Sequence record: SRR31156797_4649
DNA: 64,000 bases
Direction: 5' to 3' (one strand)
The notes beneath the pieces are model-generated. The model had not been told where the DNA came from. It searched no databases and was given only the letters and a program-made list of their open reading frames with translations. A program made the position numbers and the translations under genes. Below are positions 7,479-42,694 of the stretch, one piece after another. How positions within the stretch are numbered: position 1 is the first letter of the stretch; every line of letters begins with the position of its first letter.

Positions 7479-7579
7479 TGGGTTTTCGCTTTAATTCATT
7501 AATTTTAAAGCTGAATCAATCAGGGACATAATAAATAACCTTGCTTTATTTTATACTAAAGCAGTTAATATTGAGAAAA

Positions 7580-8491
7580 ATGAGAAAACTTATTGGATTA
7601 GCTTTAATAATGATTTTCGCACTAGCTTGCGATCAAAAAATTGATATCAAAGAAGAAGCATTTATCGGCAATGAATGGACTATTGGTGGTGAAGTTATTT
7701 TCAGAAATGATTCAAGCGTATCATACGAAAAGTTTGACCCTGAAAAAAAAGAAATGGTTGGCGAAAAGCTATTTCCAATAACATTAACTGATTCAACAAT
7801 TACCTATACCTTGATTAAAGGAAAAGGTCATTACAATGATCAAAGACAATATGTTTTAACCGGAGATACAACCATTGTTTATAAGTCTGGTTACGATTTT
7901 AAAATGGTTAATGAAGAGCCAAAACTAATCATCTATAATGAAAGTTACCCAAAAATATGCAGTTCAAAAAAGAACAAATTGAATATAAAACCAACAAATA
8001 ACTACGATCAGGTAAAGTTTGAAATTGCCAAATATTCAATTGGAAGTAGAATTGATAGAGACCTTCTCAAAACCAGAGGAATATACAACTACGAAACTTA
8101 TACAATTGAAGATTGTGAACTTAAAACCAACCATGATATCAAAATCAAAATTATTGGTTACAACCAGATTTATGCCATTGAAAGACATAATATCCCCAAC
8201 TACAGAGTAGAAGAAATAAAAAAAGTAGTGACTTCTAAAATGGGCATTGATCCAGTATATGTGCCTATGAGCCAATTAAGCGAAAAATCTGATTATGCTT
8301 ACGAATTTTACCAGTGGAGTCTAAATGGTGTAAGAATTAAACTTGAAAGAAGTCGCTATGTGGGTGATTATGCTTATATGAACCTTTTAGATAGTGACGC
8401 CTGGATACTTTACTATGATGATGACGTGCAAAAGGCTTTACTTATTGAACAACACAAAAAAAGCAAGCCACATAGTACAATAATTAATTAA
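7580..8491 (+). CDS. Hypothetical lipoprotein
   Basis: Start moved to ATG 7580 (MRKLIGLALIMIFALA|CDQ lipobox). No recognisable domain. Confidence 0.7.
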   Translation: MRKLIGLALIMIFALACDQKIDIKEEAFIGNEWTIGGEVIFRNDSSVSYEKFDPEKKEMVGEKLFPITLTDSTITYTLIKGKGHYNDQRQYVLTGDTTIVYKSGYDFKMVNEEPKLIIYNESYPKICSSKKNKLNIKPTNNYDQVKFEIAKYSIGSRIDRDLLKTRGIYNYETYTIEDCELKTNHDIKIKIIGYNQIYAIERHNIPNYRVEEIKKVVTSKMGIDPVYVPMSQLSEKSDYAYEFYQWSLNGVRIKLERSRYVGDYAYMNLLDSDAWILYYDDDVQKALLIEQHKKSKPHSTIIN

Positions 8492-8495
8492 ATCT

Positions 8496-10526
8496 ATGGG
8501 CTCGGGCCAACAATATATTATATGGATTTTATTCACAATATTGATTATCCCACAAAGCCTTAAAGGACAATCAACGATTTGTCATGAGCCCTCGCAAAAA
8601 GCATTAAAACTATTTGAAAAAGGAACCAGCCACTGGAACAACGATATTAATAAGGCTAAATCCTATATCTTCAAAGCAATAGAAGCTGATCCTCAATGGG
8701 TTGAGCCATATTACTTCCTTGCTAAAACTTATTATAGAAAAGCACAACTCATTCAGTATGATACAAGAATGGTTTCTGGTTTAAATCGTTTATTAAACCG
8801 TGCTACAGATAATTTTGAAAAGGTTGTTGAATTGTGTCCGTCATTTGAAAAATATGAATCTCTCTATTATTTAGGTAAAATATATTTTGAAGGAGGAGAC
8901 CTTGGTGGCACCTTTAAATTCCTTACAAAGTACATAGAAGGAGTTGATAAAGATAGTTGGTTACCCAAAACCGAAATGATGTATGAAAAGTGTATTGCTT
9001 TTCAAAGATTGATTAACAATCCCGTTGATTTCAACCCAATTGCAGTAAAGGGAATTTGTACCGAGAATGATGAATTCATGCCACTTATCTCTGCTGATGG
9101 AACATATATGTTGTTTACACGAAAAGTTTTTAAACGAAACCCTGGACAATTATCCAAACAATTGCGCGAAGAATTCCACTCTAGTAACTTTCTGGAATGG
9201 GATTCATTAGGCAACCCTGTATTTGATGAATCAAGACCAATGCCCCATCCTTTCAATGGCGATAAAAATGAAGGAGCAGCAAGTATTACCATTGACAACA
9301 AAACAATGTATATTACTGTATGCCAACAAATTGAAATGCCTGATGGACGTCCTTATAAAAATTGTGATATTTATGAAACCTACTACCAATATGGCAAATG
9401 GGCAGATTTTCAAAAGTTGGGTAATGGTATAAATGGTTTAACAACCTGGGAAGGACATCCTACAATTTCATCTGATGGAAAGACATTATATTTTGCCTCA
9501 TACAGACCCAAAGGTATGGGTGGAATTGATATTTATTATACCAAAAAAGATTCTACCGGAACCTGGTCAGCCCCGATTAATATGGGAAGCCCTATCAATA
9601 CAGAATTAAATGAAAAGTCCCCATTTATTCACCCTGACAATGAATCACTCTACTTTGCTTCAGATGGCCATCCGGGTGTTGGGGGTTATGACATTTTTCT
9701 ATCTAAAAAGATCAAGGATAATTGGGACGAGCCTTTCAATATTGGGTATCCTATAAACTCAACTAATGACGAATCAGGGTTTGTTGTATCAACCGATGGG
9801 CAATTTGCATATTTTTCCAGTAATACATTGGAAGGTGTTGGAGGTCAAGATATTTTTGGATTTGCATTGCCTGATAACGTTAAGCCACACAAAGTATTAT
9901 TCATTAAAGGGAAACTCATAGATGGTAAAGGCTCTATGATAAAAAAAGCTGATATAAAAGTCAAAAATATATCCACGAATGAGATTTCAACAGGACTTCT
10001 GGATGAAAATACAGGTAAATATACAATAGCACTTTCAGCTAAAAAAGATGACAATTACATCATTACCGTAAAAAAGCAAAACTATTCGTTTACTTCCAAA
10101 ATCATTTCTCCTGAAAGTGACACCACAAAGGGCAAGTTTGATATGGAGTTAAATTTTGCCATGAAAGAACTAAATGTTGGGGCAAAAACACGCTTAAACA
10201 ATATCCTATTCAATACAAATAGTGCTGATTTGACTGAGTTATCAACGGCCATGCTTGATAATTTTGCAGAGTATCTAATGGACAATCCAACCATTGAGAT
10301 TAGAATTGAAGGACATACGGATAATATTGCCGATGCGAGTTTTAATATGAAACTATCCAAAAAAAGAGCTCAAAGAGTTTATCGGTATCTGATTAAAAAG
10401 GGAATAAAAAGAACTCGTATGAATTATGAAGGGTATGGCGAAACTAAACCTATTGGCGATAATAATACCGAAAAAGGACGTGCAAAAAACAGAAGAACAG
10501 AATTTGTAATTACAGCTTTAGATTAA
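8496..10526 (+). CDS. PorE-like OmpA-family protein (TPR + PD40 beta-propeller + carboxypeptidase-regulatory-like + OmpA_C)
   Basis: TPR-like N-terminus; PD40 repeats (PTISSDGKTLYFAS, PFIHPDNESLYFAS, GGYDIF); OmpA_C motifs IEGHTD...LSKKRA...GYGE...NRRTEF. Confidence 0.88.
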   Translation: MGSGQQYIIWILFTILIIPQSLKGQSTICHEPSQKALKLFEKGTSHWNNDINKAKSYIFKAIEADPQWVEPYYFLAKTYYRKAQLIQYDTRMVSGLNRLLNRATDNFEKVVELCPSFEKYESLYYLGKIYFEGGDLGGTFKFLTKYIEGVDKDSWLPKTEMMYEKCIAFQRLINNPVDFNPIAVKGICTENDEFMPLISADGTYMLFTRKVFKRNPGQLSKQLREEFHSSNFLEWDSLGNPVFDESRPMPHPFNGDKNEGAASITIDNKTMYITVCQQIEMPDGRPYKNCDIYETYYQYGKWADFQKLGNGINGLTTWEGHPTISSDGKTLYFASYRPKGMGGIDIYYTKKDSTGTWSAPINMGSPINTELNEKSPFIHPDNESLYFASDGHPGVGGYDIFLSKKIKDNWDEPFNIGYPINSTNDESGFVVSTDGQFAYFSSNTLEGVGGQDIFGFALPDNVKPHKVLFIKGKLIDGKGSMIKKADIKVKNISTNEISTGLLDENTGKYTIALSAKKDDNYIITVKKQNYSFTSKIISPESDTTKGKFDMELNFAMKELNVGAKTRLNNILFNTNSADLTELSTAMLDNFAEYLMDNPTIEIRIEGHTDNIADASFNMKLSKKRAQRVYRYLIKKGIKRTRMNYEGYGETKPIGDNNTEKGRAKNRRTEFVITALD

Positions 10527-30572: not shown

Positions 30573-33485
30573 ATGAAAAAGCAGCTCTTAACATTCATCC
30601 TTGTAATTGCTTATTTTGCTTTAAGCTTTGCACAACCCTCAACATTCAATTATCAATCTGTAATTAGAGATGCTGACGGAAATGTGCTACAAAATCAGGA
30701 AATAGATTTAAAATTAATCATTACCGATATTGGTAAAACTGATTATTATATTGAAACACATGTATTAACAACAAATAATCTGGGGCAAATTTCAGCGCAA
30801 GTTGGAGATGGAAATGTCGAAATTGGCGATTTTAGTTCTATACCATGGGGAACAGAACAGTTATATCTTGTGGTTCAGGTTTCATTAGACGAAGGTGCAA
30901 CTTTTATAGATATGGGGCGATCTCCCCTACTCGCCGTGCCTTATGCCTTGTATGCCGCTGATGGAAACGAAGGCCCTCAAGGACCTGAAGGAAACGGCAT
31001 TGAGTCAGTAATTGATAATGGAAATGGAACAATAACCTTTAATTTTACTGATGGTTCTAGTTACACCACACCAAATCTTGCCGGACCAACCATCGAAACT
31101 TCTCCGGGAAATATCATTTACAGAGATACCACAGGTTGGGTGGCCACTGATGCCATCAAAATTGCCAATAAAAAAATTGGTATTGGTGAAGATCCTGCCA
31201 TTTCAAGACTTTCTGTAAAAGAAGACTCTTTGGCTGGAGAAAACGATCCTATTTTTGAAGTGAAAAATAAAGATGGTGAAGTAATTTTTGCTGTATATGA
31301 CGGTGGAGTGGAAATATATGTAGATGACACGGGTACCAAAAAAGGCGTAAAAGGTGGTTTTGCTGTAGGTGGTTTATCTGGTACAAAAGCTAATGGTATA
31401 GAATATCTTAAAGTAACTCCTGACAGCACCAGAATTTATGTAAAAGAACCTGCAAAAGGGGTAAAAGGCGGTTTTGCTGTTGGAGGATTAAGCGGTACTA
31501 AAAATATAACAAGAAATTTTTTACATGTTTCTCCAGACTCAGTTCGAGTTTATATTGATAATAATCCAACAAAAGGAGTAAAAGGTGGTTTCGCTGTCGG
31601 TGGTTTATCCGGTACTAAAGTAGAAGGAACATATTTTCTTAATTTAACACCGAATAATTATTTTATTGGACATGAGAGCGGTAGCAACCTAACTACTGGT
31701 TTGTATAATTCTACTATGGGATATCAGGCAGGATATTCTATTTCCGAAGGAAACAGTAATGCACTTATTGGCTATCAAAGTGGTTTTTCAACTACAACAG
31801 GAAATGCAAATTTATTTTTAGGCTACCAAACAGGTTACAATAATGTTACTGGAAGTTTTAATTCATTTCTGGGATATCAGGCAGGATTCAGTAACACAAC
31901 CGGAAGCGGTAATAGTTTTATAGGAAGTTATAGTGGTTATTCTAATACCACTGGTTTTACGAATACCTTTATTGGCTTTTCTTCAGGTAGAAATAATACT
32001 TCAGGTAACGGAAATACTTTTATAGGAAACAATGTAGGATTAAGTAATACAGAGGGATATTATAATGTTTATATTGGTGAACGAGCAGGATACCAGGGTA
32101 CGGGAGCAGATTTAAATGTTTTTATAGGTTACCGAAGTGGATATTCTGTTTCAACAGGAATTAAAAACATTGCATTGGGATACCTAAGTGGATATGGCTT
32201 GTCTTCAGGTGCAGATAACATTTTTATTGGTAGTCAAAGTGGTTATAATAACTCAACAGGAATTAGCAATGTGTTTATTGGAAATCAAGCCGGAGAATCA
32301 AATACTGGTGGTTCCAATAATGTTTTTTTAGGGTATTATGCAGGAAATGTGAACACAGCAAGTAATAATATCTTTTTGGGGTATCAGTCGGGACAAAACA
32401 ATACATCTGGTTCAGAAAATGCTTTTATGGGTTATCGTGCAGGATATAGTAATAGTACAGGTGACGATAACGTATTTGTTGGAACACAAGCTGGTTATGC
32501 AAATACAACCGGTTATAGCAATGTGTTTATGGGAAATAATGCAGGGTACTCCAATGCTGATGGTAATGCTAATGTTTTTATGGGCACAGGTGCAGGGTAT
32601 TCAAATCAGGGAGGTCGTGAAAATGTTTTTATTGGCACTAATGCCGGACTATCCAATACTGAAGGCGATATGAATGTATTCTTGGGGTATCATGCAGGTT
32701 ATTACAATACCGATTCTTATGGTAATATTTTTATAGGAAGGGAAGCAGGTAGAGAAAATCAAACAGCTAATCATAATATTTTTATGGGATATCGAGCAGG
32801 ATATTTGACTACAACCGGACAACGAAATGTAATGCTTGGAGGAGTTGTTGGAGCAGCCAATACAGCAGGAACAGACAATGTTTATATTGGTTACGGTGCA
32901 GGTGAATCCAATTCTATAGGAAATAATAATGTAATGATTGGCAGACAATCAGGAAGAAATAATGTTGGAACTGGTAACGTATTTTTAGGTATTTATGCAG
33001 GTTATAATGAAACGGGATCCAATTTATTGTATATAGATAATTCAACAACATCTTCACCATTAATACATGGAAATTTTAGTACAAATGTTGTAACTATAAA
33101 TGGAGATTTACATTATACAGGCTCCTTTAGTCAAACTTCAGATTTAAGACTAAAAACAAATTTATTGGAAATAGCTTCAGGTTTGGATATAATACGACAA
33201 ATTAAAGGATATTACTTTAATTGGAATGAGAAAGCTACTAATAAATATAATTATAATACAAATAAACAAATTGGTTTTGTAGCTCAGGAAATTGAAAAAG
33301 TGTTACCTGAGTTAATCTCAGAAGGAGCTAATGGTTATAAATCAGTTGACTACACAAAAATAACTCCAGTACTTGTTGAAGCGGTAAAAGAACAACAAAA
33401 TCAAATTGAAGAGCTAAAAACAGAAAATGAAGAATTGAAAAATAAACTCAATGGAATTATCAAGCTATTAGAAAAACAGAAATAA
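30573..33485 (+). CDS. Sec-exported tail-fibre-like protein 1: N-terminal module, short Gly-X-Y stretch, 3 KGVK repeats, 27 x 16-17-aa repeats, peptidase S74 chaperone and coiled coil
   Basis: Signal peptide SFA|QP; FNYQSVIRD...PYALYA module; GPQGPEG; NxFxGYxAG repeats; SDLRLK...IGFVAQEIEKVLPELI...VDY..ITPVLVEAVKEQ (S74). Confidence 0.85.
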   Translation: MKKQLLTFILVIAYFALSFAQPSTFNYQSVIRDADGNVLQNQEIDLKLIITDIGKTDYYIETHVLTTNNLGQISAQVGDGNVEIGDFSSIPWGTEQLYLVVQVSLDEGATFIDMGRSPLLAVPYALYAADGNEGPQGPEGNGIESVIDNGNGTITFNFTDGSSYTTPNLAGPTIETSPGNIIYRDTTGWVATDAIKIANKKIGIGEDPAISRLSVKEDSLAGENDPIFEVKNKDGEVIFAVYDGGVEIYVDDTGTKKGVKGGFAVGGLSGTKANGIEYLKVTPDSTRIYVKEPAKGVKGGFAVGGLSGTKNITRNFLHVSPDSVRVYIDNNPTKGVKGGFAVGGLSGTKVEGTYFLNLTPNNYFIGHESGSNLTTGLYNSTMGYQAGYSISEGNSNALIGYQSGFSTTTGNANLFLGYQTGYNNVTGSFNSFLGYQAGFSNTTGSGNSFIGSYSGYSNTTGFTNTFIGFSSGRNNTSGNGNTFIGNNVGLSNTEGYYNVYIGERAGYQGTGADLNVFIGYRSGYSVSTGIKNIALGYLSGYGLSSGADNIFIGSQSGYNNSTGISNVFIGNQAGESNTGGSNNVFLGYYAGNVNTASNNIFLGYQSGQNNTSGSENAFMGYRAGYSNSTGDDNVFVGTQAGYANTTGYSNVFMGNNAGYSNADGNANVFMGTGAGYSNQGGRENVFIGTNAGLSNTEGDMNVFLGYHAGYYNTDSYGNIFIGREAGRENQTANHNIFMGYRAGYLTTTGQRNVMLGGVVGAANTAGTDNVYIGYGAGESNSIGNNNVMIGRQSGRNNVGTGNVFLGIYAGYNETGSNLLYIDNSTTSSPLIHGNFSTNVVTINGDLHYTGSFSQTSDLRLKTNLLEIASGLDIIRQIKGYYFNWNEKATNKYNYNTNKQIGFVAQEIEKVLPELISEGANGYKSVDYTKITPVLVEAVKEQQNQIEELKTENEELKNKLNGIIKLLEKQK
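31341..31619 (+). repeat. Three copies of KGVKGGFAVGGLSGTK (period 38-39 aa) in fibre 1
   Basis: Copies at 31341-31388, 31455-31502 and 31572-31619; amino-acid identical with synonymous DNA differences. Confidence 0.97.
31656..33023 (+). repeat. 27 tandem N-x-(F/Y)-(I/L/M)-G-x-x-(A/S)-G repeats (24 of 17 aa, 3 of 16 aa)
   Basis: Counted from NYFIGHESG to NVFLGIYAG; 1368 nt = 456 aa. Confidence 0.95.
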
Positions 33486-33694
33486 TTAGCGATGTCAGAA
33501 TATCCTAACACTGGAATCTCTAATTTTTATTGGTGGATGGGATGGAGCAAATGAATAAGGTTCTGAAATAAAATATATTCAAGACGGTAAAGGATGGAAA
33601 TAAATTGTTTTACAGGCAGAAAATAAAGCAAAAAACATCATTTAAATTCAACAAAGGTGAGTTAACTAATTAAATGTTAATTGTGGCATTATTC

Positions 33695-33725
33695 TTTGAA
33701 CAGTAATTCCTTATGTTTATTTTTG
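33695..33725 (+). promoter_or_regulatory. Consensus Bacteroidota sigma70 promoter for the T9SS-CTD protein and fibre 2
   Basis: TTTG (33695-98), 19 nt, TATTTTTG (33718-25) matches TTTG-N19-21-TAnnTTTG. Confidence 0.65.
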
Positions 33726-33802
33726 ACCTTAAGAAATAATGTCAAAATGGTAACTTTTGTTGCTGAAAATAGTTTAATAAAAAAACATAAAACACACCAA
33801 AT

Positions 33803-34306
33803 ATGAAAGCATTTGTATTAACCGTAATATTAGTCACATTTTTGGAATTTGGATATTCCCAAAGCATCTCCAAAGAGGTTGTTGCTTCTGCTGGAGAGAC
33901 TTTCACACACCCTACTGAAAACTTTACCATGAGTTGGACACTAGGTGAAACAGTAATTGGAACTTTTAGCTCAGGCGATGGATCAATTACTATCTCACAA
34001 GGATTTCATAGTGGTGGACCTTTAAGCGGCATTGGCATTGACGAATACATGCAGAGTGAAGATTATCTTTACCTCTACCCTAACCCGGTTGACAAAACAC
34101 TGTTTATGAATGTAAGTAAAACAGGTAAAACAGAATTTACTTATAAAATTTTCAACTCTCAAGGTCAAATCATTCTCGTTGACAAAGTTTCAGAAAATGA
34201 GGAACTAATTGAAATAGATGTTTCTGAAGCTAAACCTGGGATTTATTTTTTGATTTCAGAATTTAAAAACGGAGAGAGAAATAGTTATAAATTCATAAAA
34301 AACTAA
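33803..34306 (+). CDS. Small T9SS type-A CTD protein with a ~60-aa passenger
   Basis: Signal peptide GYS|Q; VVASAG...SWTLGE...SQGFH mini-domain; CTD LYPNPV...IFNSQGQ...PGIYFL...YKFIKN. Confidence 0.88.
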   Translation: MKAFVLTVILVTFLEFGYSQSISKEVVASAGETFTHPTENFTMSWTLGETVIGTFSSGDGSITISQGFHSGGPLSGIGIDEYMQSEDYLYLYPNPVDKTLFMNVSKTGKTEFTYKIFNSQGQIILVDKVSENEELIEIDVSEAKPGIYFLISEFKNGERNSYKFIKN

Positions 34307-34342
34307 ACAAGCAACCCATTTTCCCAACTAAAATATCTCATC

Positions 34343-36874
34343 ATGAAAAAACAACTTTTAACATTGTTAGTGGTTGTCATGGCTACCATCGCCACAATCG
34401 CACAACCTAACTCATTTAATTATCAAGCAGTTATAAGAGATTCTGAAGGCAACATCTTACAAAATGAGAATACTGATTTAAAGCTTTCAATAATTGATGA
34501 AAGTGAAACTGAATACTATATTGAAACACACTCTACAACTACCAATGAACTAGGTCAAATTCAAATTGCAGTAGGTACAGGAACCGTTATAAGCGGTGAT
34601 CTAGCAACAGCTCCATGGGGAACAGCACAACTTATTTTAAAAATAGAGTTATCTATGGATGGAGGTACCACTTATGAATTAATGGGACAATCACCTCTTT
34701 TAGGGGTGCCCTATGCATTTTACTCTGCTTCAGGTGATCCAGGGCCTACTGGAAATGGAATCGACTCTGTTACAGACAATGGAGATGGAACCCTTACATT
34801 TCATTTTACAGATGGCTCAACTTATACAACACCTAACCTAGCAGGACCTGTTCTTGATGCGGAACCTGGAAACCTAATTTACAGAGACACTGTTGGTTGG
34901 ATAGCTACTGATGCCATTAAAATTGCAGGCAACAAAGTTGCAATTGGTTCAAGCCCCGCTATTTCAAGGCTTTTAGTAAAAGGAGACTCCCTCGCCGGAG
35001 CTGAGGACCCTATATTTGAAGTAAAAAATAAAGATGGAGCTGTAGTGTTTGCAGTATACGATAATGGTGTTCAAATTTATGTGGATGATACTGGTAAAAA
35101 GAAAGGCGTAAAAGGTGGATTTGCTGTTGGAGGATTATCTGGAACTAAAGCAAGCGGATTAGAGTATTTTAGAGTTACACCTGATAGTGTGAGGATTTAC
35201 CTTAGAGAAGATACTACAAAAGGTGTCAAAGGTGGATTTGCAGTTGGTGGTTTATCCGGAACAAAAGCAACGCCATATGATTATCTTAAAATTACCCCCG
35301 ATAGTACCAGAATTTATGTAAAAGAGACTGCCAAAGGTGTGAAAGGTGGATTTGCAGTTGGGGGATTAAGTGGAACTAAAAACATAAGTAAAGATTTCCT
35401 TCATGTATCTCCGGATAGTGTTAGAATATACATTGATGAATCAAATGCAAAAGGAGTAAAAGGAGGTTTTGCAGTTGGTGGATTATCTGGCACAAAAGCT
35501 CAAGGAACACAATTCTTCAATGTTGAATTTGATACTGCTCAAGTTATTGACCCAAGTGAACCTCGCATACTCTGGTATCCAGTTAAAAATGCTTTCCTGG
35601 CTGGTCAGGTATTGATTGAATCACCTGATAGTGTAGGAACAAACTCTTTTAGTTCCGGATATGAAAACAAGGCTGTAGGTTATAGTTCAATGGCAATAGG
35701 TGTTCAATCAGTGAGCCGCGGATTGTTATCAACAGCACTTGGCTATAGATCAGTTGCAGAAGATACACTTTCATTTGCTTTTGGAAATAATTCATACGCA
35801 AAAGGAATAAGCTCATATGCTTTAGGTTCTTATTCAAGAGCAATAGGAACAGGAAGTTTTGCATTAGGTTTTTATGATGCTGAATTTAGCGGATTTGCCG
35901 AAAAACCCACCACTGCATATGGACCTTACTCATTTGCATTAGGTATTGGAGCACTTGCTCATGATACCGCCTCAGTAGCAATAGGTGTCAACGCGACAGC
36001 AAGCGGTATGTTATCAACCGCACTTGGTTATAGTACGAAATCTACTGGCTACAACAGTCTATCATTTGGTGCTTTGAACGAAGCATCTGGTGAGAACTCC
36101 ATGGCAATTGGTTTTGCTTCCAATGCGGAAGGGCTAAATTCTTTCGTTGTTGGTAATAGTTCCTCAGCCCTATCAAATTATGCTTTTGCTATTGGTAATT
36201 TTGCTAACGCTGAAAGCGGTTCTTCATATGCACTTGGAAACTATATCAATAATAAAGGAACCAATTCATTTGCCTTAGGAAATAATATTGACGTCAAATC
36301 TGACGCAAGTTATAGCTTTACCATAGGAAGCAATATAATTGTTGGGCCTGATGCTAATAATAGTTTTACAATGGGTTCCAATATTGATAATAACAGTTCC
36401 GGAAGCTTTGTGTTTGGTGATGCCAGCATGGCAATGACATACAGTGTAACACAAGACAATAGTTTTATCGTAAGGTCAACCGGTGGAGTTGAAATCTTTA
36501 CAACCACCGATTATACCAATGGTATTTCAGTTTCTTCAGGTGGTGGTTCATGGAATACAATCTCAGATAAAAACAAAAAAGAAAATTACACTCAACTTGA
36601 TTCAAAAGAAATTTACAATAAATTACTTCAGCTACCTGTAGAGCGTTGGAACTACAAAAGCCAATCGCCTGACATTATGCACATTGGAACTTACTCTCAA
36701 GACTTCTATCGCTTATTCCAGGTTGGAGAAAGTGAATTAACTATCACATGGATGGATCCTGTTGGAGTGAATACAATTGGTATTCAACACCAGGCTAAAA
36801 TAATTGAACAGCAACAAAAGGAGATCGAAAAGCTTAAAAAAGAAATTGAAGAAATTAAGAGACTTTTAAAATAA
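34343..36874 (+). CDS. Sec-exported tail-fibre-like protein 2: same N-terminal module, 4 KGVK repeats, YadA-head-like 14-aa repeats, S74 chaperone and coiled coil
   Basis: Signal peptide TIA|QP; alignable with fibre 1 over about the first 350-390 aa; RILWYPVKNAFLAG; SxA(L/I/F)G repeats; SDKNKKEN...WNYKSQ...HIG..SQDFY..F. Confidence 0.85.
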   Translation: MKKQLLTLLVVVMATIATIAQPNSFNYQAVIRDSEGNILQNENTDLKLSIIDESETEYYIETHSTTTNELGQIQIAVGTGTVISGDLATAPWGTAQLILKIELSMDGGTTYELMGQSPLLGVPYAFYSASGDPGPTGNGIDSVTDNGDGTLTFHFTDGSTYTTPNLAGPVLDAEPGNLIYRDTVGWIATDAIKIAGNKVAIGSSPAISRLLVKGDSLAGAEDPIFEVKNKDGAVVFAVYDNGVQIYVDDTGKKKGVKGGFAVGGLSGTKASGLEYFRVTPDSVRIYLREDTTKGVKGGFAVGGLSGTKATPYDYLKITPDSTRIYVKETAKGVKGGFAVGGLSGTKNISKDFLHVSPDSVRIYIDESNAKGVKGGFAVGGLSGTKAQGTQFFNVEFDTAQVIDPSEPRILWYPVKNAFLAGQVLIESPDSVGTNSFSSGYENKAVGYSSMAIGVQSVSRGLLSTALGYRSVAEDTLSFAFGNNSYAKGISSYALGSYSRAIGTGSFALGFYDAEFSGFAEKPTTAYGPYSFALGIGALAHDTASVAIGVNATASGMLSTALGYSTKSTGYNSLSFGALNEASGENSMAIGFASNAEGLNSFVVGNSSSALSNYAFAIGNFANAESGSSYALGNYINNKGTNSFALGNNIDVKSDASYSFTIGSNIIVGPDANNSFTMGSNIDNNSSGSFVFGDASMAMTYSVTQDNSFIVRSTGGVEIFTTTDYTNGISVSSGGGSWNTISDKNKKENYTQLDSKEIYNKLLQLPVERWNYKSQSPDIMHIGTYSQDFYRLFQVGESELTITWMDPVGVNTIGIQHQAKIIEQQQKEIEKLKKEIEEIKRLLK
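35102..35497 (+). repeat. Four copies of KGVKGGFAVGGLSGTK (period 38-39 aa) in fibre 2
   Basis: Copies at 35102-35149, 35219-35266, 35333-35380 and 35450-35497. Confidence 0.97.
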
Positions 36875-36892: not shown

Positions 36893-36929
36893 AAAAGCTG
36901 TTCAATAGTGTTTGAACAGCTTTTTTTTT
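36893..36929 (+). terminator. Rho-independent terminator after fibre 2
   Basis: AAAAGCTGTTCAA-tagtgt-TTGAACAGCTTTT, perfect 13-bp stem followed by a T run. Confidence 0.9.
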
Positions 36930-37070: not shown

Positions 37071-40022
37071 ATGAATAAAAAAATATTTGAGGGAAAAAAC
37101 ACAGTTGAAGATAACGATCAATCCTATCTTGATTTCCCTGTTATTGGTATTGGTGCATCTGCTGGAGGATTAGAAGCACTTCAAGAGTTTTTTAGAAACA
37201 TGCCCAATGATGCAAATGCAGCCTATGTTGTTATCCAGCACCTCTCGCCTGATTATAAAAGCCTTATGGATGAGCTTCTTGCAAGGGTAACAAGCCTTGA
37301 GATCAATCGCGTTGAAGATGGTATGAAAATTCGTAAAAATGCAATTTACCTTATTCCTCCCGGTAAAAACATGACTATTTTCAAAGGCAAGCTTTTACTA
37401 ACAAATCAACAAGAAGGACGATCATTAAATCTTCCAATTGACATTTTTATGCGTTCATTGGCTAAAGATCAGGGGAAAAATGCTATTGGCATTGTGTTAT
37501 CAGGTACCGGTAGCGATGGAACATTAGGCATTAGAGCCATTAAAGAATATGGAGGAATGGTAATGGCGCAAGACGATCAATCTGCTAAATTTGATGGGAT
37601 GCCCCGTAGCTCAATTTCTACAGGTATGGTTGATTATGTTTTACCTGCCAGTAAGATGCCTGAAGAATTAGTCAATTTTATTAAGCACCCTTTAATTCGT
37701 AAAGCTCAGAATATTGAAAAACAAATTGATCAAGATGATAACCAGCTTTCAAAAGTCATTATGATCTTAAGAGATGAAAAAGGGGTAGACTTTTCCAATT
37801 ATAAACCGAATACAATTATCCGTAGATTAGAGAAACGAATCAGCATCAATCGTTATCATACTATTGAAGAATATATTGGTTTTCTTGAAGGAAATAATAA
37901 AGAAATTAATATTCTATTTAAAGAGCTACTAATAGGCGTAACAAAATTCTTTCGTGATGAACCTGCATTTGAACATGTTTCATCAGAAATCTTACCAAAG
38001 CTTTTCGAACAAAAAAACTCAAAAAAACCGCTCCGGATATGGAGCATTGGTTGTTCAACAGGTGAAGAGGTTTATTCGCTTGCTATTCTGGTTAAAGAAT
38101 ACATGGAAAAAGAAAGTATTAATCGCGATATCAAGATTTTTGCTACCGATATTGACTCGGAAAGTATTGAATTTGGTAGTAGTGGTATTTATCCTGAAAG
38201 TATTATATCTGACATATCTGCCAATAGACTATCAAAATACTTCAGCAGAAAAGAAGAAGGTTATCAAATTAAGGATAGTATAAGAAGCATGGTCGTTTTT
38301 GCTCAACATAACATTCTTCGCGATCCCCCATTTTCAAAAATCGATCTTTTGGTTTGTCGAAACATGATGATTTACCTTAACTCAGAAATCCAGCAAAAAA
38401 TATTATCGATGTTTTACATATCACTAAATAAAAATGGTTTCTTATTTTTAGGTAGTAGTGAATCTGTTGGGGATTTATCAGATGGTTTCAAACCTGTAAA
38501 TTCTAAATGGAAAATTTACAAAACTGTTGAAGGGTTTTATCCCAAGTTTACTGATAAGTATTTAATTCCTCATGTTTCAAATTCAAAAAAAGACCTTACA
38601 TCTATAAGTTCTTATTACAATAGAGAAAAGAAAAGGATTCCAAAAATTGACAATATTTTCAATGAGATAATGACTGACATACTCCCACCTTCTGTCATTA
38701 TTGATGAAGAATACAATATTGTACATACCATACACAAACTTGATAAATATATTAAATTACCAATTGGACAAGTTAGTTTCAATATTCTGAAAATGTTGCC
38801 AGAAGAATTGGATGTAATGGTAAGCAGTTTACTAAGAAGAGCTTCGAAAACAAATCATTCAATTATTTATGAAAATATTAAAATCAATGAGCTGGATAAA
38901 CCAGTCAGTATTTCAGCAAAGAAAATAAGATCCTCAAAAACTGATGATTTTTTCTTCATAGTATCTTTCAGTGAAGTTGATAAAAAATCAATAAATAAAA
39001 CAGAAAACAAAAAGGTTGAAAAAGTTGACATCAACAATCAATATCAGGAAAGAATTGAAGAACTTGAAAAAGAAATTCAAAGTAAAAGTGAAAGCTTACA
39101 AGCTACTGTTGAGGAATTAGAAACTTCTAATGAAGAATTGCAATCATCCAATGAAGAATTAATAGCATCAAATGAAGAACTCCAAAGCACTAACGAAGAG
39201 TTGCAATCTGTTAATGAAGAACTCTATACCGTTAATGCAGAACATCAAAAGAAGATTGAAGAGCTAACTCAGCTAAATGCAGATATGGATAATCTTCTTA
39301 AAAACACCCAAATTGGAACACTTTACCTTGATCAAAAGCTTACTATCCGAAAATTCACCGACCTGGCATCCAAGCTTACCAATATTCTTAAAACAGATAT
39401 AGGTAGACCTATTCAACATATCAATACCAAACACATATATGAAGATTTCTTAAGTGATATTGAAAAAGTGATTCAAACCCTACAACCAATAGAGCATGAG
39501 ATACAAACGAAAGAAAACAAATGGTATTTACTCAGAATTATTCCGTTCAGAACAGCTGACAATGCTATTGATGGAATAATAATCACATTTATCGATATAA
39601 CCTCACTTAAAATATCTGAATCAGAGCGATTTAAATTAATAAATCTGCTCACCCTAACTCTTGAAATTAGTCCCGATGCAAGCTCTATAGTTGATATAAA
39701 TGGAGAAATTACCTACGCCAACAAAAAAGCAAGGGAAATATTTGAGATTTCTAAAGAAGAAATACATAAAAGATCCTATGATTCAAGCGCATGGAAAATA
39801 ACTGGCATGGACAATAAACCAATTCCAAGTGCTGAGTTGCCTTTTAGTATAATTAAAAATACATTGAAACCTGTCAACGATTACAAGCATTATATTAAAA
39901 TTGGAGATTCCAAAAAGAAGTTATTATCAATAAGCGGGACTCCTTTATTTAATGAAAATAAACAATTTGATGGTGCATTGTTTAATATTATAGACATAAG
40001 TAAAACAAGCAAACCGAAATAA
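37071..40022 (+). CDS. CheB methylesterase-CheR methyltransferase fusion with NEEL coiled coil and PAS domains
   Basis: CheB triad GASAGG/IQH/GSDG; CheR motifs [28 protein letters not shown] and CRNMMIY; five (S/T/V)NEEL heptads; C-terminal PAS domains. Confidence 0.92.
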
Positions 40023-40135
40023 ACAAATGGATTTTAATTTCATATGATCATTGATATTTAAATAATACTATTGATCTTTTAATGACAATAAATTAGTTTT
40101 TTAGGGTTAACTATATAGCTAAACTATTTTACCAT

Positions 40136-42694
40136 ATGGAGACAAATAAAAGCAAAGCTTTAAGAGAAAAAGCCAAGCAAATATTAATGGAAAGAGGTAA
40201 AGTTACACCTGAATACGCCCACGATCTGGAAATGCTTATTGAAGAACTCAATATTTACCAGATTGAACTTGAACAACAGAATAACAACCTTAGAGAAACT
40301 CAGCTGAAGCTGCAAGATAGCCAGGAGCAATACATCGACCTATTTAACAATGCACCTGTAGGTTATGTAGTTATTAATAAAGAAATGGAAATTCTAAAAA
40401 CCAATAACCTGGGAGCCAAGCTATTAAATTATCCATTAAGTGAAATTATCAATACTAAATTCTCAAAATATATTTCCCCTGATTTTCAGGACACATTTTA
40501 TCTCTATTTTAATCAGGTAATTTCAAATAAACCCACTAGTCACTGTGAAATTGCCCTAAAAAATAATAACCGAGATATTTATATAAGTATTGAAAGTGTG
40601 CTGAATAGCTCAAAATCCGATGAAGCAAAAACGGTTAGAATGGCTTTAACAGACATTAGCAACCAAAGAAAGACGTATAATAAATTAGAAATCAGTGAAA
40701 ATAAATACAGAGCTATTTTTGAAAACTCTGGAGATGGTTTTTTAGTGCTTACTGATAAAATCGAAGATGCCAATTTACAGGCTGCAACCATATATGGTTA
40801 TACCCTCGATGAGCTTATTGGATTGCATCCCGGAAGAGATCTCTCTCCAAAAGAGCAACCAGATGGTAAACAAAGTGAAAGTGAAGCACTAGTAAAAATT
40901 CAAAACGCCATTAAGCATGGATATCAAAAGTTTTATTGGCAGCATATCACAAAAGATGGGACCCTAATTGACACAGAGATTACTCTTGCACTTTATACAA
41001 GTGACCCTTCTCCTAAGATAATTGCTGTAGTTAGAGATATAACAGCTCAAAAGAAATACGAACAACTTTTAAAACAAAAAAACGAAGAAATTGCCGCTCA
41101 AAACCATGAATACAGTGAACTTAACAAGCAGCTAAATGAAGCTGTCACACTTCTACATGTAGCCAACAAGGAAATTACAGAAAGTGAAGGCAAATTTAGA
41201 AATTACCTTGAGTCTTCTCCTACGCCAATCATCATTATTGATCACGAGAACAAAGCCACATTTTGTAACACTGCAGCCGGAAAACTATCTGGTTATCTGA
41301 ACGACAGCAGAACGAATTTCAATAATTTTTTTGTAGACATCAATAAAAATGCTGAATTACTCCAGAAAATTAAAGAAACTGGAAGAATAAACAATTATGA
41401 ATGCCAAATTAAAACTGAGAATGGCGATTTAATCAATGTCATGATTAGTGCCAATAGAATAGAACAAAATCAAGTTATTCTTTTTATCACAGATGTAAGT
41501 ACAATTATAGAAGCAGAAAAAGTAATTAAAGACAACGAAACAAGACTTCAATTAGCATTGGAAGGAGCATACGAAGGTATGTGGGATTGGAATATTAAAA
41601 CCGGACAAGTAGTTTTTAATAATATTTGGGCTGAAATGCTGGGCTATAAACTTGATGAAATTGAACCTAACGTAAAAGCATGGGATGGTATAATTCATCC
41701 TGATGATAAGGATGAAACCTATAATGAATTACAAAAACATCTGGATGGAAAAACTGAACGTTATGAATCAGAACATCGTTTAAAAACCAAATCAGGTGAT
41801 TATAAATGGATTCTGGACAGAGGAAAAGTTGTAGAATGGGATGATGAAGGTAAGCCTTTAAGAGCTATTGGCACACATTTAGACATTTCCAGACAAAAAC
41901 AAACTGAACAAGAACTCAAAAAGGCCAAAGAAAGAGCAGAAACGGCCGATAATTTAAAATCAGCATTCCTTTCTAATATGAGCCATGAAATCCGAACTCC
42001 AATGAATGGTATTATTGGATTTACAGAGATACTTAGCAAAAAGAATTATAGTCCTGAAAAAAGAAACCGAATATTTGGTATAATTCAAACTAGCTCAAAA
42101 CAACTGTTGCAACTGATAAACGATATTGTAGACATATCCAAAATTGAAGCAAATCAACTAAATATTTTCTGGGAAGATTTTCAAATTGATGAAATGTTAG
42201 CAGAAATTGCTGAAATGGCCAAAATGGATTTATTAAAGCAAAATAAAAATCAAAGCGTAAAATTTGAACTGGTATTGCCAAAAGATCAAGTCCCTTTAAA
42301 AATCCACAGTAGCTCAAACCGCTTACGTCAAGCTATTACTAATCTGGTAAATAATGCCATTAAATTTACACATGAAGGTTACATTAAAATTGGATATAAG
42401 ATTATAAACAAAACACATGTCCAAATATTTGTTGAAGATACTGGTATTGGAATCTCTGAAAAAGGGAAAAATATAATTTTCGAAAGGTTCTCACAAGCCA
42501 CACCCGAAACCACAAAAAAATATGGAGGAACTGGACTAGGACTATTCATTACCAGACAATTAATCGAAAAACTACACGGCGAAATTACAGTAGAGTCTGA
42601 GCAAAACAAAGGTTCAATATTTAAAATTAAGATACCTATCTCAAAAGCTGCTGATACTGAAAAACAAAATGAATTTAAAGAAACTTCAAATTAA
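40136..42694 (+). CDS. Multi-PAS sensor histidine kinase, partner of the CheB-CheR fusion
   Basis: N-terminal ELNIYQIELEQQN coil, PAS/PAC domains, H-box SNMSHEIRTPMN and HATPase (DTGIG, GGTGLGL). No receiver domain. Confidence 0.9.
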   Translation: METNKSKALREKAKQILMERGKVTPEYAHDLEMLIEELNIYQIELEQQNNNLRETQLKLQDSQEQYIDLFNNAPVGYVVINKEMEILKTNNLGAKLLNYPLSEIINTKFSKYISPDFQDTFYLYFNQVISNKPTSHCEIALKNNNRDIYISIESVLNSSKSDEAKTVRMALTDISNQRKTYNKLEISENKYRAIFENSGDGFLVLTDKIEDANLQAATIYGYTLDELIGLHPGRDLSPKEQPDGKQSESEALVKIQNAIKHGYQKFYWQHITKDGTLIDTEITLALYTSDPSPKIIAVVRDITAQKKYEQLLKQKNEEIAAQNHEYSELNKQLNEAVTLLHVANKEITESEGKFRNYLESSPTPIIIIDHENKATFCNTAAGKLSGYLNDSRTNFNNFFVDINKNAELLQKIKETGRINNYECQIKTENGDLINVMISANRIEQNQVILFITDVSTIIEAEKVIKDNETRLQLALEGAYEGMWDWNIKTGQVVFNNIWAEMLGYKLDEIEPNVKAWDGIIHPDDKDETYNELQKHLDGKTERYESEHRLKTKSGDYKWILDRGKVVEWDDEGKPLRAIGTHLDISRQKQTEQELKKAKERAETADNLKSAFLSNMSHEIRTPMNGIIGFTEILSKKNYSPEKRNRIFGIIQTSSKQLLQLINDIVDISKIEANQLNIFWEDFQIDEMLAEIAEMAKMDLLKQNKNQSVKFELVLPKDQVPLKIHSSSNRLRQAITNLVNNAIKFTHEGYIKIGYKIINKTHVQIFVEDTGIGISEKGKNIIFERFSQATPETTKKYGGTGLGLFITRQLIEKLHGEITVESEQNKGSIFKIKIPISKAADTEKQNEFKETSN

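Follow-up and report, generated by a model that had tools for sequence, protein, structure and literature searches.

The closest described counterparts of the system considered here are the MAT fibres of Bdellovibrio bacteriovorus, surface fibres with an N-terminal domain (N-domain) that is presumed to bind a surface element left unidentified in the accessible text of the describing paper (Caulton et al., 2024; PMC10769870). S74 domains drive trimerisation and then cleave themselves off, as is also set out in the available part of a MAT review (PMC13689555). Here we describe a comparable arrangement in a window of 64,000 nt (the whole stretch of DNA analysed, from sequence record SRR31156797_4649), where three consecutive plus-strand open reading frames (ORFs) of 970, 167, and 843 amino acids (aa), with intergenic gaps of 317 nt and 36 nt, encode fibre 1 (P0001; 30573..33485), a small partner protein (P0002; 33803..34306), and fibre 2 (P0003; 34343..36874). 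Each fibre begins with a signal peptide and a base domain of ~110 aa (aa 21–130 in both; 30633..30962 and 34403..34732), and the small protein consists of a signal peptide, a conserved head of ~50 aa (aa 20–72; 33860..34018), and a type A C-terminal sorting domain (CTD; aa 91–167; 34073..34303) of a type IX secretion system (T9SS). On the sequence evidence assembled below, it seems fairly probable that the base domain is bound by the head, which would serve as a dock at the surface; the fuller proposal, in which head and base domain are a cross-phylum plug-and-socket pair for trimeric MAT-like fibres, with a lineage-specific sorting signal on the head and piggyback export by the T9SS in Bacteroidota, is put forward tentatively.

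As far as they are described in the accessible text, MATs of the S74 subgroup share with the window fibres a signal peptide, apparently a conserved β-rich N-domain, a mosaic phage-like shaft, and a C-terminal S74 domain with an SDxxxK motif, and both systems include several paralogues, with S74 and non-S74 members. The motif that marks this subgroup occurs once in each window fibre (at aa 856 in fibre 1 and aa 741 in fibre 2). The window fibres differ in scoring below the cut-off of the MAT N-domain model (NF053851), in having a Bacteroidota host, and in adjoining a CTD-tagged partner gene, whereas the surface partner of the MATs is left unidentified in the accessible part of PMC10769870. The fibres would work like MATs although they fall below the family cut-off, and the passenger of the small protein is of an undescribed kind. 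From the S74, YadA-head, and Gly-X-Y modules we infer, by analogy, a trimeric fibre at the cell surface that may bind prey or glycans. An outer-membrane barrel for the Bdellovibrio fibres has reportedly been presented at a conference; it was not found in the literature searched, and nor was a published description of the head/base pair, with or without the T9SS, most subscription papers lying outside the coverage of that search.

T9SS cargo is thought to need a C-terminal tag of its own. In Porphyromonas gingivalis, type A CTDs are cut off by PorU and A-LPS takes their place, according to the available portion of the source (PMC9143113). With its signal peptide and its matches to PF18962 (E 2.9e-12) and TIGR04183, both above cut-off (42.3 bits against 23, and 47.1 against 27), the small protein has the formal features of T9SS type A cargo; PorU was identified above cut-off in 5/5 genomes of the close family, and sprA is present in genome G001. 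It departs from PorU-anchored cargo in its passenger: the non-enzymatic head of ~50 aa would hold a second protein that has no tag. Fibre 2 resembles the trimeric autotransporter adhesins of the YadA family in its YadA-head β-roll repeats and, probably, in forming a trimeric fibre, but the window fibres lack a C-terminal barrel and have the reverse polarity, the base being N-terminal and S74 C-terminal. The shaft of fibre 1 and the S74 domain match phage tail families, as in the S74 tail spikes and fibres of phages, but the window fibres are chromosomal and carry a Sec signal and a cellular base domain instead of a virion-attachment domain.

Coupling of head and fibre genes across genomes

The head family comprises 66 representatives at E ≤ 0.001, and searches of Pfam and NCBIfam with the head found no family. 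A motif scan of species genomes recovered at least 122 head loci, 80 of them with flanks; these 80 contain 76 distinct head genes. A same-strand base-domain gene lies within 450 nt of 52/76 (downstream of 44 and upstream of 8), and 36 of the 53 head genes with at least 2 kb on both flanks stand beside a base-domain gene. All five of the lone-head genomes tested hold 4–12 base-domain matches elsewhere, some with other heads beside them. The reverse count started from 121 genomes sampled across Bacteroidota, about a quarter of which (28/121) encode the base domain, and from one further genome found through its head (29 in all), using a head profile iterated blind to neighbourhood. An adjacent head was identified for 31/52 base-domain genes, in 23/29 genomes, and further neighbours of base-domain genes resemble divergent heads by eye. 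As a control, head-less CTD proteins of the same loci are adjacent to a base-domain gene in 11/35 cases, or in 4/25 after removal by eye of 10 divergent or cut head genes. Co-occurrence of the small CTD gene with base-domain fibres had been set beforehand as a check in the preliminary description, and it is borne out in both directions. In the same sample, sprA is present in 96/121 genomes, among them all 28 with the base domain; the 25 that are sprA-negative lack the domain (hypergeometric 5.7e-4, kinship ignored). More widely, of 8,000 protein clusters that were scored, at least 3,940 carry the base domain. Head and base domain are also together on two of three viral contigs with the domain (L313:4467-5657 and L314:4434-6374, possibly as phage cargo), the third contig being cut just upstream.

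The head retains its fibre neighbour while its tail is exchanged. A type A CTD was matched in 57 of the 66 head representatives; two carry a dockerin, two carry neither, and five are short sequences without any family. Beside fibres, heads also occur with a type B CTD (L051, L144, and L161), a 3-coathanger domain (L027 and L037), an IPTL-CTERM signal in a Bacteroidota genome (L179), and, on visual inspection, with a dockerin-like tail (L047). In two very large T9SS proteins the head is directly before the CTD and not N-terminal (L008:6676-11979, 1767 aa; L069:6700-12369, 1889 aa). The order head-CTD protein, small outer-membrane β-barrel (PF13505, below cut-off), and fibre was seen at L173:1761-4957 and L174:2645-5930.

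The pairing extends to Planctomycetota, where a divergent base subfamily (alignment A6) was identified in 18/101 genomes. None of the 101 genomes has a match to the sprA model that detected the gene in Bacteroidota, and the planctomycete base-domain loci have no CTD matches. Seven of 29 base-domain genes have a directly adjacent head-like gene, all seven head matches are adjacent, and shuffled and reversed controls for this search gave no matches. The alignment of planctomycete heads (A8) contains three more that were added by eye; a profile from planctomycete heads alone matched 17 of the 2,684 ORFs in the Bacteroidota-centred locus set, all 17 of them heads. One planctomycete head protein carries MYXO-CTERM above cut-off, and two have a tail motif that we take to be CFI-box-CTERM, which NCBIfam did not confirm. 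Because the pairing is present in Planctomycetota genomes without an sprA match, it is not a T9SS-specific device, and since it exists without the T9SS, anchoring would be the function of wider reach, with the CTD as a local tag. The A6 subfamily was not found in 201 genomes of Bacillota and occurs in 3/201 Pseudomonadota genomes. PamT is given, in the accessible part of its source, as the putative tip pilin of the Pam pili of the candidate phyla radiation (CPR; PMC13278184). Five of 11 planctomycete heads (L289, L290, L292, L293, and L300) weakly match the PamT model NF058579 over positions ~4–85 (E 4e-7 to 6e-5; 23–30 bits against a cut-off of 240), and P0002 does not match it; this likeness is partial and sub-threshold, short of a full-length PamT, and a lead only.

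The base domain and the missing sorting signal

AlphaFold2 predicts the base domain of fibre 2 (pLDDT 90.2) to be a seven-strand immunoglobulin (Ig)-like sandwich accompanied by a short helix. Both fibres match NF053851, the N-domain model of the Bdellovibrio MATs, below its cut-off of 60 bits (fibre 1, 21.5 bits, E 1.6e-4; fibre 2, 33.2 bits, E 4e-8), in alignments that span only positions 2–80 of the 162 in the model. In the divergent subfamily A6, 11/12 sequences match NF053851, the best at 42 bits, and A6 is homologous to the base-domain alignment A4, of which fibre 1 is a member (hhalign 99.4). The base domain appears to be a distant relative of the MAT N-domain. Sequence searches of the PDB with alignments A4, A3, A8, and A6 returned nothing under E 0.39, and Foldseek with the base-domain model gave no match at E ≤ 0.001. 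VIA-align placed the model closest to generic Ig-like sandwiches (best Z 7.3); its likeness to the T9SS CTD (Z 6.3) is inside the background of unrelated Ig folds. Searches of the ESM Atlas reached unnamed clusters only (best 0.90 and 0.84), and the base domain had no match in PHROGs. The head modelled alone was of low confidence (pLDDT 58.8), and a complex prediction of three base domains with three heads, run without family alignments or control complexes, reached scores of 0.23 and 0.20, the mark being 0.34.

In 99 complete base-domain proteins, the C-terminal 150 aa were compared with known families. The fibre tips match known trimer modules, namely S74 (36), C1q (2), Lcl_C (2), collagen (2), BclA_C (1), and Collar (1); Fib_succ_major was also identified. 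The same 150 aa contain a type A or B CTD or an autotransporter anchor in 0/99 proteins, and none of 120 listed base-domain proteins has a CTD of its own. The preliminary description had explained the missing CTD by S74 occupying the C-terminus, and we reject this explanation. S74 is itself missing from 63 of the 99 CTD-less proteins. In addition, S74 has 81 matches in the same genome sample, and 5/30 S74 loci examined (L188, L200, L204, L205, and L206) encode S74 and then, after a coiled coil, a type A CTD, above the TIGR04183 cut-off in three. No base domain was seen in these five proteins, two of which are perhaps incomplete at the N-terminus. The lack of a CTD tracks the base domain and not S74. 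Trimeric S74 proteins have either their own CTD or a base domain beside a head, a pattern that helps the wider docking idea. In one genome (G006), a different S74 expansion, S74 matched 19 times and the base domain not at all.

Fibre anatomy and genomic neighbourhood

Behind its base domain, fibre 1 has a short Gly-X-Y linker, three KGGFAVGGL repeats, a shaft of Gly/Asn-rich 17-aa repeats in 24 evenly spaced copies (31656..33017), which matches phage tail spike and fibre families (phrog_4636, E 5.6e-48, and others), an S74 intramolecular chaperone/autoprotease (aa 856–914; 33138..33314; PF13884, E 1.9e-13), and a coiled coil. Fibre 2 has four KGGFAVGGL repeats, a YadA-head β-roll shaft with a 14-aa period and 17 motif matches (35687..36442; PF05658, E 3.9e-24), an S74 chaperone (aa 741–792; 36563..36718) that is just above the PF13884 cut-off (E 1.3e-4; 22.6 bits against 22), and a coiled coil. 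The shafts are unlike each other, and the two proteins share 64/109 identities in the base domain and 249/355 over the first ~360 aa. The KGGFAVGGL repeat (~39 aa; 31335-31622 and 35096-35497), which comes after the shared module, is present in 3–5 copies in close relatives and has no Pfam family; it sits where the constant base meets the variable shaft, and recombination at this point could allow shafts to be exchanged. The signal peptides of all three proteins were assigned by eye from a basic start, a hydrophobic core, and a cleavage site before Gln. Cys is absent from all three proteins; therefore none is a lipoprotein, and lipoprotein anchoring is ruled out for the fibres and the small protein alike. 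Pfam and NCBIfam searches of both fibres found neither a CTD of type A or B nor an autotransporter anchor, and the C-termini consist of S74 and a coiled coil ending in Lys, without a YadA-type barrel, for which reason we reject the fibres as autotransporters. In these respects the preliminary description holds: the fibres are paralogues with Sec signals (by eye), a shared N-terminal module, repeat shafts, and C-terminal S74, lacking CTD and barrel, and the gene 36 nt upstream of fibre 2 encodes little more than a signal peptide and a type A CTD.

A match to the Bacteroidota promoter consensus, weak on its own, lies on the plus strand 77 nt before the small gene (33695..33725), and a 13-bp hairpin flanked by T runs, a likely terminator, follows fibre 2 (36893..36924; listed on the minus strand, with a T run visible on the plus strand). 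The consensus scan gave six matches in the window, where 5.2 would be expected from chance, one of them in this intergenic gap, and a sigma-70 scan gave 23 sites against 27 expected. The promoter-like match and the hairpin together weakly suggest that the head gene and fibre 2 form one transcript.

The closest named relatives are from Salinivirga. In two relatives (G135 and G137) a fibre gene starts divergently from cstA, as in the window, with the contigs ending there. A second G135 contig encodes four fibres and two heads, and G132 encodes six tandem fibres with a single head; a mobile-element-like gene of 388 aa splits the last of these six fibres (L237:10292-14305). Shafts and tips vary among the fibres of close relatives, some of which lack S74. 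The locus behaves like an array that can expand, in which the base is constant, the fibres vary, and fibres outnumber heads; one head gene could serve several fibres.

The flanking chromosome is ordinary: at E ≤ 1e-15, the 43 other ORFs of the window belong to housekeeping families or have no match. Phage structural or replication families were not found among nine neighbours compared with PHROGs, and the virion, integrase, or replication genes expected around a prophage tail cluster were not found in the window, in agreement with the earlier statement that phage genes are absent nearby. Two genes at 7541-10526 are possibly a PorP/PorE-type pair of the T9SS: the first, of 316 aa, has no strong family, and the second encodes a PorE-like/OmpA protein of 676 aa (NF052230, 244 bits against a cut-off of 600). 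Directly downstream of the cassette are a CheB/CheR-PAS fusion and a PAS histidine kinase (37071-42694), which are probably unrelated to it because the genes at this position are different in relatives.

Mechanism, alternatives, and significance

The reading that fits best is that the head is a general surface dock for MAT-like fibres and the CTD its Bacteroidota tag. The fibre would cross the inner membrane by Sec, as its signal peptide suggests, and would trimerise from the C-terminal S74 domain, which would cut itself off at the SDxxxK motif seen here, as is established for S74 proteins. By analogy with MATs, the variable shaft and tip would face outward and bind a target. The ~50-aa head would grip the Ig-like base domain. 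The CTD of the small protein would be removed by the PorU route and the head tied to a surface glycolipid, a process established in P. gingivalis. In Bacteroidota the fibre would pass the outer membrane piggyback on the tagged head; this is the least certain step, plausible and, given binding, evenly balanced between true and false.

Several observations weigh against docking. By the head models used, 21/52 base-domain genes in Bacteroidota, 22/29 in Planctomycetota, and 7/7 in Pseudomonadota have no adjacent head; in Pseudomonadota one head-like gene is 2.7 kb away. Of the 23 positive Bacteroidota genomes, 14 have the same gene order and probably belong to a single clade, and the coupling counts are for this reason not independent. 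Support for homology of the short head between phyla is modest (hhalign probability 88.6, E 2.6e-6), the correlation of head distances with base distances is weak (88 pairs, rho 0.28, permutation maximum 0.19, kinship ignored), and the small barrel gene between head and fibre in two loci is a possible alternative exporter. The many fibres without an adjacent head and the two that adjoin barrel genes would also suit a co-inherited surface cassette without direct binding, in which the fibres leave by their own route, either through a separate barrel or with the Ig-like base as a secretion signal; the generic Ig fold of the base, with its background-level likeness to the T9SS CTD, is compatible with the latter. 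We consider this explanation unlikely, given that a conserved 50-aa segment without another role stands beside the fibre across phyla and with at least five tail types, and that no barrel gene was found near the window locus.

Alternatively, the small protein could be an export escort only, lending its CTD so that the fibre can pass SprA and is then released or held otherwise. That base-domain fibres never carry a CTD, among either the 99 complete or the 120 listed proteins, is consistent with an escort, as is the confinement of the domain to sprA-positive genomes within the Bacteroidota sample. However, the pairing persists without an sprA match, where heads have membrane-anchoring or dockerin-like tails, and a head with IPTL-CTERM stands beside a fibre in a Bacteroidota genome, so that escort alone is improbable. 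The T9SS-CTD adaptor system of the preliminary description accords with the 28/28 sprA-positive base-domain genomes, but is too narrow for the planctomycete pairs.

It is very improbable that the fibres are periplasmic or packed into vesicles: they have no export signal beyond Sec, but their variable adhesin-type tips and tandem expansion speak against such a location, as does the surface location of their MAT relatives in the accessible text of PMC10769870. Remnants of a prophage or contractile injection system are largely excluded, for although the shaft and S74 match phage tail families and the cassette occurs on three viral contigs, the genes have signal peptides, intact frames, and housekeeping neighbours, occupy the same site beside cstA in relatives, and encode a base domain without a PHROG match. 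The earlier idea of a domesticated tail-fibre adhesin applies to the shaft and S74, but not to the base domain.

The route of MAT-type fibres to the surface, and the means by which they are kept there, are left open in the accessible text of the paper that described them (PMC10769870). If docking is correct, the head/base pair would be a candidate partner type for the MAT N-domain and would represent a new mode of T9SS cargo recognition. With the two-gene cassette, the questions of the T9SS tag and of MAT display can be put to a direct test in genetically tractable Bacteroidota, using domains that are small and soluble. A dock that proves general would explain many proteins annotated as 'tail fiber domain-containing' or 'T9SS type A sorting domain-containing', and would provide a modular part for surface display.

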